Assembly (NCBI GenBank): GCA_951406725.2
Contig: OX597830.1
Span: 6,014,001 to 6,078,000 of the forward strand
Source of the DNA: Octopus vulgaris
Taxonomy: Eukaryota
Direction of reading: 5' to 3'
Length of the DNA: 64,000 bases
The notes below the pieces were generated by a model. That model was not told where the DNA came from and searched no databases. It worked only from the letters and a program-made list of their open reading frames with translations. A program made the translations under genes and the position numbers. Shown in pieces: positions 3,430 through 63,660 of the stretch (its first letter is position 1; every line of letters starts with the position of its first letter).

Positions 3430-3464
3430 CTGTGTCTGTGTGTGTTTATCTAATATATACATAT

Positions 3465-3800
3465 ATACTTTTATTCTTTTACTTGTTTCAGTCATTTGAC
3501 TGTAACCATGCTGGAGCACCGCCTTTAGTCGAAAAAATCGACACCGGGACTTATTCTTTGTAAGCCTAGTTCTTATTCAATCGGTCTCTTTTGCCACACC
3601 GCTTACTTACAGTGACGTAAACACACCAGCATCGGTTGTCAAGCGATGTTGGGACGACAAACATACATACATAAACATATAGACTCATACATAAATATAT
3701 ACATATATACGGCGGGCTTCTTTCAGTTTCCGTCTCCCAAATCCACTCACAAGGCATTGGTCGGCTCGCGGCTATAGTAAAAGACACTTGCTTCACGTAA
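3465..3800 (-). mobile_element. SINE group C, 5'-truncated
   Basis: Collinear with 59011-59330 (ACTTGTTTCAGTCATTTGACTG...AAATCCACTCACAAGG...GACACTTGC). Confidence 0.85.
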
Positions 3801-15106: not shown

Positions 15107-16640
15107 GGAAAAGAGGAAAACTAGTTAAGAGTAGCAACATTACACTACATAAAACCAATAAAATAAAAGAATTAGACCAAAGCCAAAACTTACAAATACT
15201 TAGGAATCCATGAACTAGATAAGACACAACACATACAAATGAAAGAGAAAATAATAAAAGAGTATTATAGACGAGTTAGATCAATACTAAAAACAGAGCT
15301 CAATGCTAAAAACAAGATAATAGGTATTAACACTTTAGCTGTCCCAGTTATAAGTTACAGCTACAATATCCTTAACTGGACACTAAGCGAACTGACCAAA
15401 ATAGATTGGAAAACAAGAAAAATAATGACAGGATCTAGGATGCATCACCCAAAATCTGACATAGAAAGACTATATATACAACGCATAGAAAGTGGTAGAG
15501 GCCTTATACAGCTAAATAACTACTATAAAATAACCACCATAGGACTGCAATAATATCTACTTCAGAAGGAAGGAAAACTGATAAAAATAGCGGCAAAACA
15601 CGAGCAAAACAAAAAAATGTTCTCAGTATTTAAGGAAGCTGACAAATACAAACAAGAAATCATACCACCTAACAAATATAAAGAAGAAAAAGAAGAAGAA
15701 GAAGAAACAACAAAAGCTATAAAACAAATGAAATCCAAACTAAAAGTAGAACAGCAACGAACCATGATAAAACGATGGCAAGAAAAGCCTCTTCATGGTA
15801 AATACTGGACTAAACTAAATGCAAAAGAAATAGACAAAGAAAAATCCCAGCAATGGTTGAGAAGCTCAGGACTCAAAGCAGAAACAGAGGGATTTTTAAT
15901 TGCAGCACAAGACCAAAGCCTCCCCACCAGAAATTACCAAAAACATGTAATGAAAAGAAATATTACAAGTAACTGCAGAATATGTGGAGATGGACAAGAA
16001 ACAATAAATCATATTATCTCTGGCTGCCCAGTCCTGGCTAAGAAGGAATATATTCACAGACATGACAGAGTTGGAACCTACATACACTGGAAGCTAAGCC
16101 AACATTATGGAATAACAACAGAAAAAAGATGGTATAGGCACACACCAGAAAAGGTCACAGAAAACGAGAAAGCAACCATACTCTGGGATATGCCGATACA
16201 CACAGATAGAGAAACTAAGGCCAACAGACCAGATATAGTTGTCAGAGATCATGGAGAAAAAAATGCTTTCTAATTGATGTATCAATACCAGCAGATGACA
16301 ACGTGTCTCTAAAAGAAATGGAGAAACTCTCAAAATACAAAGACCTGGAAATAGAGGTAACTAGAATGTGGAACCTGAAAACAGAAACAATTCCTATCAT
16401 AGTAGGTGCATTAGGCATGATAAAAAAATATTCAGACAAATACATAACAAAAACACCAGGACTTACAAACACATATAACATACAGAAAATTGCACTACTA
16501 GGCACTGCACACATCCTACGCAGAACACTTTCCATACAATAACCATCAGAGCATCACAACAAATCCCAGCACATACCCAACGCACACAGAGCTGCGCTCG
16601 GTAGTGAAGTGAAAGCACGCTATAAAAATAAAACTACTGA
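15106..16640 (+). mobile_element. 5'-truncated R4/Dong-like non-LTR retrotransposon (family 1): RT end, thumb, CCHC finger, restriction-like endonuclease
   Basis: Motifs YKYLG, HPKSDIERLY..R..GRGL, CRICGDGQETINHIISGC (CCHC), HRHD, RPDIVV, KLSKYKDL, IPIIVGALG and IQKIALLGTAHILRRTL. Interrupted by frameshifts and a stop. Flanked by (TAA)n on both sides. Confidence 0.93.
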
Positions 16641-16646
16641 ATAATG

Positions 16647-16691
<45 letters not shown>

Positions 16692-16709
16692 GTAATAATA
16701 ATAAGTAAT

Positions 16710-16743
<34 letters not shown>

Positions 16744-16830
16744 GTAATAATAGTAATAATAATAATGATAATAATAATAAAAGTAATAATAATAATAATA
16801 GTAATAATAATAATTATTATTATTATTATT

Positions 16831-18203
16831 ACTGGTCAATTACTGAAATATGTCAGCTCGACAGAAAAATAAGGAAACTGTTGACAATGCATAGAATGCA
16901 CCACCCCAGGGCAGATACAGAACGACTCTATCTGCCAAGAAAAGAGGGAGGCCGTGGTCTTTTGCAACTGGCAATAACAATGAAGATTGCTACAATTGGC
17001 CTAGACACCTATCTGAAAAACTCTGAGGACTGGATGTTAAAACTTGTCTCAAAACATGAAAACAAGAAAGCATCATACTCAGTCAGAAAACAGGCAAAGG
17101 AATATCTAAGTGAATTCCGAATACAACCAATTTCGGAATTAGAGATAGATATACAAGAAACAAGCACAGAAAAAGCTAGGCGCATGAAAGCCTGCGCCAA
17201 AAATGCGGCCTTAGATATTCTGAATAATAAATGGCAAGAAAAACCTCTCTATGGCAAATACCCAAAGAGAGCGAACAATGCAGATATCGACAAAGCCCCT
17301 GACCCATCAATGGCTAATGGCCTCTGGCTTAAAATCTGAAACAGAGGGGTTTATCATAGCAGCTTAAGATCAATGCCTACCAACAAGAAACTACCAGGCC
17401 AACATATTAAAGAACGGCAGTAGCCCAACATGTCGTGTATGCCGACAAGAAAATGAAACCATTGACCATGTTGTCTCCAAATGCAGTCTTCTAGCGCCTA
17501 CAGAGTACCTCAGTAGGCATGATAGAGCTGCACAATATATTCACAATTTGCAAAAACCTGGATTTGCCCCATGAAAAAAACTGGTGGGAACACAATCCAC
17601 CTCCTGTGCTTGAAAATGACCACATCTCACTCCTCTGGAACTTCACCATTCAAACTGACAGGACGATAGATGCAAATAGGCCAGACATTATATTGAAAGA
17701 CTTCAGACAAAGAACATGCCTCCTCATTGATATGACTGTCCCAATCGATATAAACGTATCTGTCAAGACCTACCAAAAACTGAGCAAATATAAAGATCTT
17801 GAAATAGAAATCAGCAAAATGTGGAAGCTGAAGACTGTCTCAGTGACGTTTTGTATACATTTGGGAATGATAGCGAAAGGGACTGATTGCTACCTAACTC
17901 AGATACCAGGAAACCCCAATATGGCAGAAATTCAAAAGATAGTGCTCATGGGAACTGCTCATATCCTACGCAAAATACTCTCTATGTAATCCCAAGGTTT
18001 AAAACAAACTTTTATTTATTTATTTTTTTTTTTATTTTTTTTTTTTTTATTTATTTTTTTATGTATTAGACATTCACTAGTACAACACCAACAAAAAAAA
18101 AAACAAATATATGGCACAGAACTTCCAACCTGTTGTCTCTTGAGGTCTCTGGGTGAGACTTGGAGCCAACTTGTACAGACATAAAGCAAAAGTCAAACAT
18201 AGA
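16831..18203 (+). mobile_element. 5'-truncated R4/Dong-like non-LTR retrotransposon (family 2)
   Basis: HHPRADTERLYLPRKEGGRGLLQL, WQEKPLYGKY, CRVCRQENETIDHVVSKC, RHD, RPDIILKD, KLSKYKDLEIEI and IQKIVLMGTAHILRKIL*. The 3' UTR ends in (TAA)n. Confidence 0.93.
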
Positions 18204-49199: not shown

Positions 49200-49317
49200 A
49201 TATAAAGGCAATATTAACTTAAACAATGTCTTAGCCGTCCAACGATGGTTTAGTTGGCCGAAACTTCGAATCGATGTCATCGCCAGCAAAATTCTTGTCT
49301 TGAGGGTCATATATGTT

Positions 49318-49370
<53 letters not shown>

Positions 49371-49409
49371 GTATATGTATATGCATGTATGTATTTATAT
49401 ATATATATA

Positions 49410-49839
49410 TATTATTAGTTATCGGTAAGCTAATATGACAGCCCAGAAATATAGGACGAATGCTGCCGTTGATTAGCTCCAAGAGGCCATCGCCTCTAGC
49501 TAGCTATGTTTCACACGAATCTGTGTCCATTATAACCTTCGAACAGACGCCCAGTACCGATGCCTGCTGGGTTCGGCTGCTCTACATTGATAAGGTGCAA
49601 ATACCATGAAACTAGTCTACAGATGCCTGACCAGCAAGGGGAAGTGCTGACCACTCCTGTTCGAAGGTTGTAATAGACACAGGTTCGTTTGTCACATAGC
49701 TAGCTACAAGCGATGGCTTCTTGGAGCTAATCAACGGCAGCATTCGTCCTATACTTCTGGACTGCCAAGTTAGCTTGGCGATAACTATTAATATGCAGTA
49801 CCGCTGCCGTAGTCTCCTTTAGAGAGACTTAGAAATATT
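49410..49839 (+). mobile_element. Penelope-like pLTR-type foldback element with a U3-A8 hammerhead-like core in the loop
   Basis: Inverted arms 49410-49546 and 49657-49794 (~137 bp). The loop contains TTGATAA-GGTG CAAA TACC-AT-GAAA-CTAG-TC (49587-49617). The one-sided tail 49795-49839 ends in the hairpin AGTCTC/GAGACT. Inserted in (TA)n and homologous to 58414-58735. Confidence 0.75.
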
Positions 49840-49840
49840 A

Positions 49841-49871
<31 letters not shown>

Positions 49872-50779: not shown

Positions 50780-51340
50780 CTGTAACCTTAATTACCCACA
50801 AGTTCTCAGCTGTTTTTCAAGTACTTAGAACCCCACTGATAATCCGGAATAAGAATATAAGAGATCTATTGACCTCTATTTCTGACTCCAAAAACACTAG
50901 CATTGGAGTATCTGCACGCTGTACTTTGAAAAACAGCAGCAAGAGAGGTAAGTCCTGTTCATTGTGCAACAACATTATTCAAGTGAATTCCATCAGAAAT
51001 CATAACAGAAAAGTTATGATTTATACAGAAGGGACATGTAGAGATTCCCGCAGCAGAATGCACGAAACACAAATTTATTTTGGTTGTACAACAGAACAAT
51101 TAAACAAAACGTTTAATGGGCACATATTCGACGGCAGGCGCAATAACAGTAGTTCGACAGAACTTGCAGAACATTTCGTTTCAAACGGCTGCAATTTTGA
51201 GAAAATGACTAGAAAGTGCTTATTCTCAGAAAATATTCTGAATCTGCTTCACTTTCACTTCTCAGAATGCATGAGGAGAAATATTTTTGCAGGTGATTGA
51301 CATCACGCCCTGGAGGAATGGATAAAATGACAGGAGAATA
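50780..51340 (+). pseudogene. Penelope-like element GIY-YIG endonuclease remnant (Neptune-type linker)
   Basis: PLIIRNKNIRDLL linker, CxxC (CSLC), IYFGCTTEQLNKTFNGH (YxG..T..L..R..H motif) and LAEHF. A C-terminal P-G-G-M-D lies in another frame. A CTGATGA relic lies downstream at 51459. Confidence 0.75.
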
Positions 51341-51674: not shown

Positions 51675-52395
51675 CGAAAGATTCTCGGATAGATCTTAAT
51701 TACCAGTAATTCTTTACTTGAAAGCAGGCAATAACAAATCACTAAAGGTTTCAAATAGTGCCTTCCCCTGTGACTCAGAGACAATACTCTCCTTAGAATG
51801 CAAGCTGTACCCAACTATGCTTTCTTCTGGTTCACTTTCAGCCTGACAGCAGCCTCAATATTCTTAATATGTTTTTCAAAGCCCTTGAAACTGCGTCCAA
51901 TGCTCCAATTACCATCACTATCACCATTACTTTCCTCATGTCCCATAACTTTCCTATCTCATCCCACAGTGGCTGGTATTCCTCAATATTTTCTGTTTCC
52001 TTACATTTTACCCTCGAATCGCCTGGTATTGCAGCATCTATTATCTTCTTTTTCATCTTTATGGATGAGTACGCTGTCTGGTTGTCTCGTCTCTATGACT
52101 TGGTCACACTGCATGTTAAAATCCGAGTATTTTGTAATATTCGTTTTCCATTATTCCCTCTGGCTTGTGTTCACACCATTGTTCCGCTCTCTCGAGGTTT
52201 GCTTTACTGCACAATAGCCAGTGGACATATCTGACCACATTGTCGTGTCTCTTTTTGTATTCGCGTTGTGCGAGCTTACAGTACTCGCTAACAATATGGC
52301 TTATACTTTCTCCCTTTTCAGAGCACATCCTACTTTGTAGCATGTCAGTGCTTTTATCAATGTGATATTCGGAGTAGTTTGATCTGTGTCTCTTG
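51675..52395 (-). mobile_element. truncated R4/Dong-like element (family 4)
   Basis: RMCSEKGESISHIVSE (CCHC relic), KRHDNV, IIDAAIPGD, VIGAL and LGTACILRRVL. The 3' end runs into (AAT)n on the minus strand. Confidence 0.85.
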
Positions 52396-52399
52396 CAAT

Positions 52400-52942
52400 C
52401 AGCTGTTCCGAGCAGTGCTGTTTTCTACAAGTGCTCCACCTTTATTGCAGCCCCTATTTGTTCCACGTACTTCTCGAGATTTTTGTTCACTTCGACAATT
52501 ATTGTTACTATTGCTACCTTTTTCATCGACCACAACTGCTTAACTTCCCAAGCTAACCTATAATATCTCTCGACTTTTCTTTCTTCCTTACCGTATATCT
52601 TGCTGTCCGCGGGGCATGCTATATCTATGATCCAGCATAGTTTGCTTTCTTTCTCAGCTAAGACTATGTCCGGCTTCCTATTCTCAATCTCATGGTAGCA
52701 CTGTATCATAAAATCCCATAGGATCTTCGTATCTCTATTTTAGATGTTGCCTTCAGATTTGTGGTCGTACCAATTTTTTGCTCTGTCAAGTCCATACTTT
52801 TTGCAAAGTGTCCAGTGGACAAACCTGGCTATATTGTCGTGGCGTCTCTTATATTCCTTCTGGGCTAGTGGCGTACATTGGCTAGTAATATGCCATACAG
52901 TTTCACCGTTTTTTCCACAGATTCCGCACTTATCACTTTCTT
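52400..52942 (-). mobile_element. truncated R4/Dong-like element (family 5), lacking the 3' UTR
   Basis: CGICGKNGETVWHITSQC (CCHC), RRHDNIAR, ILWDF, KPDIV, IIDIACP and HL*KTALLGTA. Same family as 63098-63660. Preceded by (AAT)n(AAG)n. Confidence 0.9.
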
Positions 52943-53945: not shown

Positions 53946-54230
<285 letters not shown>

Positions 54231-54257
54231 ATATATATTTATATACTCTCTTTTACT

Positions 54258-54657
54258 ATTTTACTTGTTTCAGTCATCTGACTGTGTCCATGCTTGAGCA
54301 CCGCCTTTAATCGAGCAAATCAACCCTAGGACTTATTCTTTGTAAGCCTAGTACTTATTCTATCCGCTTCTTTTGCCGAACCGCTAATTTACGGGAACGT
54401 AAACACACCAGCATCTGTGGTCAAGTGATGTTGAGAGGACAAACACAGACATATAAACATATACACATTCATATATATATACATATACATATATACGACG
54501 AGCTTCTTTCAGTTTTCGTCAGGTAAATCCACTCACAAGGCTTTGGTCGGCCCGAGGCTATAGTAGAAGATACTTGCGCAAGGTGTCACGCAGTGGGACT
54601 GAATCCGGAGTCACGGCGTCGTTAAGCAAGCTACTTGCCCCACAGCCACTCCTACGC
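54258..54657 (-). mobile_element. SINE group C, full length
   Basis: Collinear with 58978-59408. Confidence 0.88.
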
Positions 54658-54766
54658 TTATATATATATATGTGTGTGTGTGTGTTCGTGTGTGTGCGGG
54701 GGGGTGTATGTGTGTGTGTATGTATGTATATGGAAAAACATCTTATAATAAATCTCTCTCTCTGTA

Positions 54767-58413: not shown

Positions 58414-58728
58414 AATTACTAAGTCTCTCTAAAAGAGAACAACGGCAGCGTTCCCGGAAAATATTAGTTATCGCCATACTAATATGGCATTCTTATAAAA
58501 ATAAGAATAAAGCTGACCGCTTATTAGCTCCATGAGGCCATCGCCTTAAGTTAGCTATTTGATACACAAACTGTATCCATATAACCTTTGAACAAGGGAG
58601 GTCAGTCGCTCCACACTACTTGGCCGGCAGCTACATACGCGTTTCGGGGTATTGCCCCTTTTCAATGCTAATAAGCGGTCAGCTTTATTCTTATTTTTAT
58701 AAGAATGCCATATTAGTATGGCGATAAC

Positions 58729-58735
<7 letters not shown>
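58414..58735 (-). mobile_element. Penelope-like pLTR-type foldback element with perfect 69-bp arms and a U3-A8 hammerhead core
   Basis: Arms 58460-58528 and 58667-58735 are exact reverse complements. Minus strand 58668-58633 reads GCA-TTGAAAA-GGGG CAATA CCCC-GAAA-CGCG-TA-TGT. One-sided tail 58414-58459. (TA)n flanks both sides. Confidence 0.8.
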
Positions 58736-58977: not shown

Positions 58978-59408
58978 ACTCTTTTACTCTTTTACTCTTT
59001 TACTCTTTTACTCTTTTACTTGTTTCAGTCATTTGACTACGGCCATGCTGGAGCACCGCCTTTAATCGAGCAACTCGACCCCGGGACTTATTCTTTTGTA
59101 AGCCCAGTACTTATTCTATCAGTCTCTTTTGCCGAACCGCTAAGTAACGGGGACATAAATACACCAGCATCGGTTGTCAAGCAATGCTAGGGGGACAAAC
59201 ACAGACACACAAACACACACACGCATATATATATACATATATACGACGGGCTTCTTTCAGTTTCCGTCTACCAAATCCACTCACAAGGCTTTGGTCGGCC
59301 CGAGGCTATAGTAGAAGACACTTGCCCAAGGTGCCACGCAGTGGGACTGAACCCGGAACCATGTGGTTGGTAAACAAGCTACTTACCACACAGCCACTCC
59401 TGCGCCTA
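58978..59408 (-). mobile_element. SINE group C, best-preserved copy (tRNA head + CORE-like domain)
   Basis: Minus strand AGGCGCAGGAGTGGCTGTGTGGTAAG (A box)...GGGTTCAGTCCC (B box)...ACCTTGGGCAAGTGTCTTC (CORE-like), with a (TAAAAGAG)n tail. Confidence 0.9.
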
Positions 59409-59455
59409 TATATATATACACACATATATACGTACAAAAATACAAAACATAGATA

Positions 59456-63098: not shown

Positions 63099-63660
63099 CA
63101 CGACAATATAGCCAGGCTTGTCCACTGGACACTTTGCAACAAGTGTGGACTTGACAGAGCAAAAAATCGGTACGACCACAAACCTGAAGGCGTCATCCAA
63201 AATAGAAATGCAAAGATTCTATGGGATTTTATGATTCAGTGCGACCATGAGATGGAGAATAGGAAGCCAGACATAGTCTTAGCTGAGAAAGAAAACAAAC
63301 TATGCTGGATCATAGACATAGCATGCTCAGCTGAAAACAAGATATGCGGTAAGGAAGAAAGGAAAGTCGAGAGATATGACAGGTTAGCCTTAGAAGTTAA
63401 GCAGTTGTGGTCGATGAAAAAAGGTAGCAGTAGTACCAATAATTGTCGGAGCCCTGGGATCAGTGAGTAAAAATGTCGGGAAGCACGTTGAACAAATAGG
63501 GGTTGCAATAAGGGTGGAGCACTTGTAGAAAACTGCACTGTTTGGAACCGCTCGAATATTCTGTAAAGTGCTAGAAAAATAAGAGGCGTTACCTCAGTTC
63601 ACTGGTAGTGAACAGCTGACACCGTAGTATATCTCCAGCGTTAGAAGATGTGCAAAGGCA
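63098..63660 (+). mobile_element. 5'-truncated R4/Dong-like element (family 5)
   Basis: HDNIARLVHW, ILWDF, KPDIVL and IIDIAC, then after a frameshift VPIIVGALG...HL*KTALFGTARIF. (AAT)n upstream, (TAA/TAG)n downstream. Confidence 0.9.

Follow-up and report, generated by a model that had tools for sequence, protein, structure and literature searches.

The element at positions 49409-49832 of the window (the whole 64-kb stretch of Octopus vulgaris DNA that was analyzed), called copy A below, probably arose when the terminal repeat (pLTR) of an endonuclease-positive (EN+) Penelope-like retroelement (PLE) was inserted in 5'-truncated form. The accessible parts of the published accounts describe PLE insertions as carrying an inverted 5'-truncated copy, a one-sided tail of 30-40 bp and (TA)n targets (Arkhipova et al., 2013, PMC3846280; Craig et al., 2021, PMC8557442). 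Copy A resembles these EN+ insertion units in its head-to-head inverted, 5'-truncated copy, its one-sided tail within that size range and its microsatellite (TA)n target, and its family may share their occasional head-to-tail joints. An adjacent inverted copy with a variable breakpoint is present in both family members found in the window (copy A and a relative, copy B) and at 10 joints listed from public contigs. The tail stands at one end only, with 38 bp in copy A and 40 bp in copy B, and the hammerhead motif of PLE terminal repeats is matched by a descriptor in 2 of 2 copies, against 0.1 matches expected per window. The anatomy and the U3-A8 hammerhead core have already been published for PLEs, and the system of copy A is not new. 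The PLE reading is weakened because no reverse transcriptase/endonuclease (RT/EN) ORF is linked to the copies, Rfam hammerhead models give no score and a text search for motifs finds no match in the Naiad/Hydra consensus set.

Anatomy of copy A and its relative in the window

Copy A is bounded on both sides by (TA)n tracts, a (TA)n/(TATG)n tract on the left (49315-49409) and, on the right, a short AT-rich run followed by a (TA)n tract (49833-49867). No target-site duplication is readable at these flanks. The inverted arm (49409-49546, minus strand) is a 5'-truncated, tail-less copy of 49657-49794 that is identical to it at 121 of 138 positions and mismatched at 17; the initial annotation had been right about inverted arms, and its estimate of ~137 bp becomes 138 bp on measurement. 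The direct copy (49547-49832, plus strand) is a pLTR-like unit containing the hammerhead, the hairpins and the 38-bp tail (49795-49832, plus strand), which is absent from the inverted copy. Between the two lies an inversion-junction segment (49536-49546, plus strand), 11 bp complementary to 49657-49667. Loose contig ends indicate that the direct unit reaches further 5' in other family members than the 49547 start of copy A. Sequence resembling 49536-49546 is found upstream in these relatives (loose ends before 49558 and 49561), so this segment may represent junction microhomology and also form the base of a long, rod-like helix I.

Copy A is an old, decayed copy that has lost ~6% per arm and would be inert, and no open frame runs through it. 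Its arms differ at 49670, 49718 and 49769, all of which are common family polymorphisms; because all three are transitions, these positions fit decay of one sequence and descent from two templates equally well.

Copy B (58419-58735, minus strand) follows the same plan, with a direct unit at 58668-58419, a core at 58665-58636 and the tail described above. Its inverted arm (58667-58735) is identical to 58460-58528 at 69 of 69 positions, and the 5' strand of its helix I is cut off. The homology between copy A and 58414-58735 proposed in the initial annotation is confirmed at 73% identity over 259 columns (E 9e-33), the two copies lying in opposite orientation. Copy B is the younger of the two and belongs to a different subfamily. 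The 64-kb window contains no third copy. An ATG-started frame of 19 codons runs through the tail of copy B (58480-58419, minus strand) within a 37-residue open stretch and could either mark where the ORF of the parent element begins or be a chance occurrence. At this place copy A reads TTG and shows a gap of 1 nt, which hints weakly at a non-autonomous A-type. Peptide words of the copy B frame are absent from a text search of the accessible PMC8557442 supplement.

Predicted hammerhead and 3' hairpin domain

The sequence at 49587-49617 (plus strand) forms the predicted core of a minimal type I hammerhead of the U3-A8 variant. It consists of UUGAUAA at 49587, GAAA at 49608, the palindrome ACUAGU at 49611-49616 and GUC at 49615-49617, with predicted cleavage after C49617; the U3-A8 core, GAAA, palindrome and GUC triplet of the initial annotation are thus all present. 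Positions 3 and 8 pair, helix II abuts GAAA, helix III is palindromic and the cleavage site is of the UH type. A minimal-hammerhead descriptor applied to both strands of the 64-kb window matches only copies A and B, with a background of 0.1 matches per shuffled window (palindrome of at least 6, 30 shuffles). Rfam hammerhead models match neither copy at E values up to 10, and Rfam matches across the whole window are restricted to low-complexity sequence among the 150 of 270 matches listed.

The helix II register first proposed (GGUG/UACC) was rejected, as it places 2 nt between helix II and GAAA. In the preferred register, G49594 is unpaired and the three pairs G49595-U49607, U49596-A49606 and G49597-C49605 abut GAAA, so copy A has no extra nucleotides and the two reported before GAAA vanish. 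The accessible part of PMC4209133 lists an unpaired nucleotide at this point among the traits of PLE minimal hammerheads. Most of the family carries G49596 and C49606 (88-95%), which makes the U-A pair of copy A a minority form. The initial annotation had also called stem I decayed in this copy, and indeed only 3 of 5 core-proximal pairs remain, the helix being broken at A49619. The family seldom has this defect (G makes up 97.5-98.9% of depth at this position), and its majority letters leave helix I largely paired. An extended helix I enclosing the core is predicted at 49547-49667 (plus strand); the z score of -2.98 obtained for 49533-49672 includes a contribution from arm-to-arm pairing.

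The palindrome is maintained despite change, reading ACUAGU in copy A and ACGCGU in copy B. In the contigs, T>A and A>T at 49613/14 occur at matching shares (35/33% in run X1 and 28/27% in run X4, unphased). Its retention fits dimer formation via helix III. Copies A and B both continue past the cut site on its upstream side, and 49618 is not a starting point in any of the 10 listed joints. Copies that reach upstream of the cut site point to an uncleaved template RNA, in line with in vitro work in which uncleaved RNA is the main PLE template (accessible part of PMC11167929).

Comparable hammerheads are described in the available parts of Cervera and De la Pena (2014, PMC4209133), where Schistosoma PLEs carry a minimal U3-A8 hammerhead in which helix III is palindromic and a nucleotide bulges out ahead of helix II. 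With the minimal type I hammerheads of metazoan PLEs, among them the U3-A8 variant of Schistosoma Cercyon, the copy A/B family shares the U3-A8 core, the unpaired nucleotide ahead of helix II, a palindromic helix III that implies dimers, mostly solo copies and opposite-strand pairs. It differs in helix II, which has 3-4 bp rather than 7-8 bp and a basal G-U pair in most of the depth, and in its predicted long helix I rod. Hydra-1_Obim, in the accessible PMC8557442 supplement, has a hammerhead with a C3 core and a sequence other than that of copy A.

A multi-hairpin domain is predicted 3' of the hammerhead at 49734-49829 (plus strand). It comprises a closing stem that pairs the body with the tail (49734-41/49803-10), hairpins at 49746-62 and 49763-80, and a terminal hairpin at 49811-29. 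The last 104 nt fold alike in copies A and B (z -3.57 and -2.95), and only 0/200 and 1/200 shuffles fold as well. The opposite strands of the domain give z scores of -4.20 and -4.07; since both strands fold about equally well, folding does not choose between them. RNAalifold run on both copies predicts 53 pairs, 8 of which are changed on both sides. Two copies alone have no covariation power, and these two-sided changes were checked against a table of family letters covering 40 of 88 places. Three of the eight depend on rare family letters (49596/606, 49709/718 and 49768/775), and one is doubtful, as it sits in a 2-bp stem. The other four (49678/691, 49746/762, 49749/759 and 49769/774) are consistent with subfamily differences; for three of these pairs, the support consists of having no variant row among the places listed and of loose-end sequences.

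Both hairpin pairs named in the initial annotation lie where it had placed them. Its claim that the arm hairpins keep pairing while changing sequence stands for the four changes above and fails for its lead example, GCCAAG/CTTGGC. Position A49768 is T in 99.4-99.9% of family depth (X1, X4 and X7) and T also in the sister arm of copy A, so that pairing is a private change and not selected covariation. The accompanying proposal of selection on a 3' multi-hairpin structure accordingly loses that example and keeps the common fold of copies that are 73% alike, along with the four surviving changes. On these predictions, the multi-hairpin domain that both copies conserve 3' of the ribozyme probably reflects a real structure. 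It brackets the tail, and a role in RT recognition is plausible by analogy with in vitro work on another PLE (accessible part of PMC11167929). A literature search returned no paper describing the family of copy A or a conserved set of hairpins at the tail of a PLE, which is not proof of absence.

Family copies in public contigs and the search for an encoding parent

Contigs of four public runs (X1, X4, X7 and X18, with organism codes A, C, D and A; 4 of 24) were compared with 49545-49836 at 80% likeness, which aligned 2291, 2730, 1928 and 104 contig records, respectively; X18 may be an RNA run. Expressed as a ratio to the median depth of the eight long contigs listed per run, the depth at the tail comes to ~12,000, 9,600 and 51,000 for the three large runs, and around 49580 the depth is lower than at the tail by a factor of 11-42. 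Depth is not copy number, and the divergence of copy A lowers 5' mapping, so part of the 5' fall is a mapping effect. The copy number is therefore put only very roughly at 10^4 (about 1-5 x 10^4), the firm part being that it is very high and more so at the 3' end.

Of the 15 joints listed out of 27, 10 connect opposite strands; no two of these share the same pair of points, and the arms that they imply measure 18-138 bp. Two tail-to-head joints are also among those listed (49833>49553 and 49836>49559), each in one X4 contig and each returning ~280 nt. In 5 of the 10 listed inversion joints the direct piece starts at 49649-49659, where the predicted helix I rod has its 3' base; truncation may favor this point, or the cluster may reflect alignments that break off at a divergent spot. 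Junction microhomology at the 10 listed joints is 2-4 nt within +/-2, like that at random positions when measured against this decayed reference, and fold-back priming is thus not generally supported. The 24 of 526 loose ends listed include, for each of the four runs, ends at 49793/4 that continue into AT-rich sequence, which makes the tail-less end a fixed family feature. They also include ends before 49558 (X1, 9 contigs) and before 49561 (X18, 1 contig, at least 255 letters), which indicate that the family continues upstream. The contig comparison lists no stacked ends, a feature that contigs would not reveal. The conserved family motif has no match in metagenome and viral contigs, a degenerate hammerhead pattern finds no viral loci, and the phage collection gives no match. 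Four metagenome loci matching the degenerate pattern share nothing beyond it and were taken as chance.

No RT/EN ORF linked to the copy A/B family is present in the window. A text search of the accessible PMC8557442 supplement, in which line breaks can hide motifs, finds no motif match in the published Naiad and Hydra entries, those from octopus included; in these two respects the family differs from the EN+ units cited above. PLEs make up 6.83% of an Octopus vulgaris assembly, in 190 families, according to the accessible part of PMC13282606, and the copy A/B family may already be catalogued among them.

A decayed GIY-YIG endonuclease region lies 1 kb downstream of copy A (50800-51237, plus strand, and 51459) and derives from a PLE with a C-terminal EN. 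Its translation matches a 508-aa RT + GIY-YIG protein at E 3e-13; a word-index protein search returned nothing, and an exhaustive search returned 26 relatives. A CxxC motif just upstream of the EN makes the remnant look Neptune-like, a label that is inferred. The remnant shows that C-terminal GIY-YIG PLEs exist in this genome. A CUGAUGA box without a following GAAA occurs ~160 bp past the stop of its frame, and its 3' side has no similarity to the copy A/B family.

Other repeats in the window include non-LTR retrotransposon ORF fragments at 15176-17989 (plus strand, with zf-RVT at 15554-16270), 52116-52841 (minus strand) and 63099-63470 (plus strand). The pieces at 52.5 and 63.1 kb form an inverted pair (323 nt, 91%) and are presumably R4/Dong-type C-termini, from their appearance. 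Several SINE-like families are also present, many of their copies adjoining microsatellites (e.g. 3450-3790, 54200-54660 and 59020-59410); one of them begins with a motif that we take to be that of octopus SINEs.

Proposed mechanism, rival readings and significance

The proposed mechanism draws on a reconstituted anole PLE, Poseidon_Ac (PAc), as described in the accessible part of Frangieh et al. (2024, PMC11167929). The PAc protein, a predicted dimer, nicks AT-rich DNA on both strands, and reverse transcription starts at two sites flanking the tail; the hammerhead needs protein and is dispensable for insertion. Copy A is like PAc in having a hammerhead upstream of a structured region and tail and in its AT-rich target, and its tail would lie between the two RT start sites. 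In PAc the ORF starts inside the hammerhead, the core is C3-G8 and the distance from hammerhead to tail is shorter, whereas copy A lacks such a frame and has ~215 nt between the two. By this analogy, a PLE RT/GIY-YIG protein would nick both strands of AT-rich DNA at the octopus target, and reverse transcription would start at two sites flanking the tail, here ~49832 and 49794. Both cDNAs would stop early, leaving them 5'-truncated, and would join head to head into arms of variable length. Alternatively, one cDNA and a fold-back second strand could be joined head to head; such self-priming suits the 11-bp junction of copy A. The palindromic helix III might let two RNAs form an active hammerhead as a dimer, and the 3' hairpins are the candidate site of protein binding and initiation.

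Readings outside the PLEs have to account for the same anatomy. Long inverted arms in TA context would be natural if the element were a DNA transposon of the MITE or foldback kind, bounded by terminal inverted repeats (TIRs), and its hammerhead were incidental. Such an origin is highly improbable for copy A, given arms of 138 and 69 bp in the window copies and a similar spread at the further joints, a tail that lies on one side only and outside the arms, an arm that duplicates internal sequence, and a hammerhead palindrome that is maintained under change. A symmetric TIR MITE, the outcome against which the initial annotation had set its own reading, was looked for, and instead breakpoints vary and the tail is one-sided. 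With variable inversion points, this tail and the two head-to-tail joints, the family is not a fixed-TIR MITE. Very unlikely, too, is a non-autonomous Helitron-like element with hairpins acting on single-stranded DNA, for which we take HINE/Helentron-type families to be the candidates. The subterminal inverted repeat, the 3' hairpin near an AT-rich end and the comparable folding of both strands would suit it, but such an element would not be expected to have a hammerhead core or head-to-head inversions at variable points. G-U-type variation at 49709/49718 (G 99.8% and T 91% in X7) and 49594/49607, a weak and unphased signal, suits sense RNA. It is also unlikely, if less so, that selection had no part in the hairpins and that chance, together with the correction of quasi-palindromes at the DNA level, produced them in decayed copies. 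Three of the eight two-sided changes do fall on rare letters, and A49768 perfects the palindrome in one arm only. Against this origin stand the shared multi-stem fold that shuffled sequences so seldom equal, and two changed pairs within one hairpin whose A-type form is also found in X7 loose ends.

A sub-case of the PLE reading differs in the template RNA. Copy A would belong to a dedicated non-autonomous element of ~0.3-0.6 kb, either a SINE-like unit or a retrozyme derived from a PLE, that makes a transcript of its own, possibly circular, and is moved in trans by PLE protein. We consider this possible but doubtful. The very high copy number and the lack of an ORF in copy A favor it, as do the tail-to-head joints with their short return, the contrast between the ATG frame of copy B and the altered start in copy A, as if the A-type had lost its ORF start, and the proposal in the accessible part of bioRxiv 10.64898/2026.07.22.740005 that animal retrozymes are PLE derivatives. 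Yet only two such joints are among those listed, copies A and B are solo inverted pairs rather than tandem arrays and both start upstream of the cut site, the long X18 contig suggests that the unit may be longer, and an open frame of 19 codons is common by chance. Animal non-LTR retrozymes, as described in the available parts of PMC7229834 and the same preprint, resemble the family in a non-coding unit of ~300 nt, a type I hammerhead and some tail-to-head joints. They occur in tandem arrays, in contrast to the dispersed inverted pairs and the minimal, non-canonical core of copies A and B, and the 64-kb window holds no tandem array of hammerhead-bearing monomers.

A fuller version of the PLE reading, which we regard as somewhat unlikely, treats the A-type as a stand-alone non-autonomous PLE parasite with ~10^4 copies in several related species. 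Its 3' four-stem RNA domain would pair the tail onto the body and position both RT start sites, while its palindromic hammerhead would pair two RNAs, so that a dimeric RT would write one cDNA per target end. If true, the stand-alone parasite would explain the head-to-head insertion of PLEs and give a defined RNA signal.

For genome annotation, hairpin-shaped PLE stumps of the kind seen here are easily mistaken for MITEs. With thousands of copies in several subfamilies, the family could supply enough sequences to test properly for covariation in the RNA structure that surrounds the PLE tail. The same copies could serve to test whether the two insertion arms stem from one or two RNA templates. 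Both the RNA structure of the tail and the number of arm templates are open points of the PLE mechanism in the accessible parts of PMC3846280 and PMC11167929.
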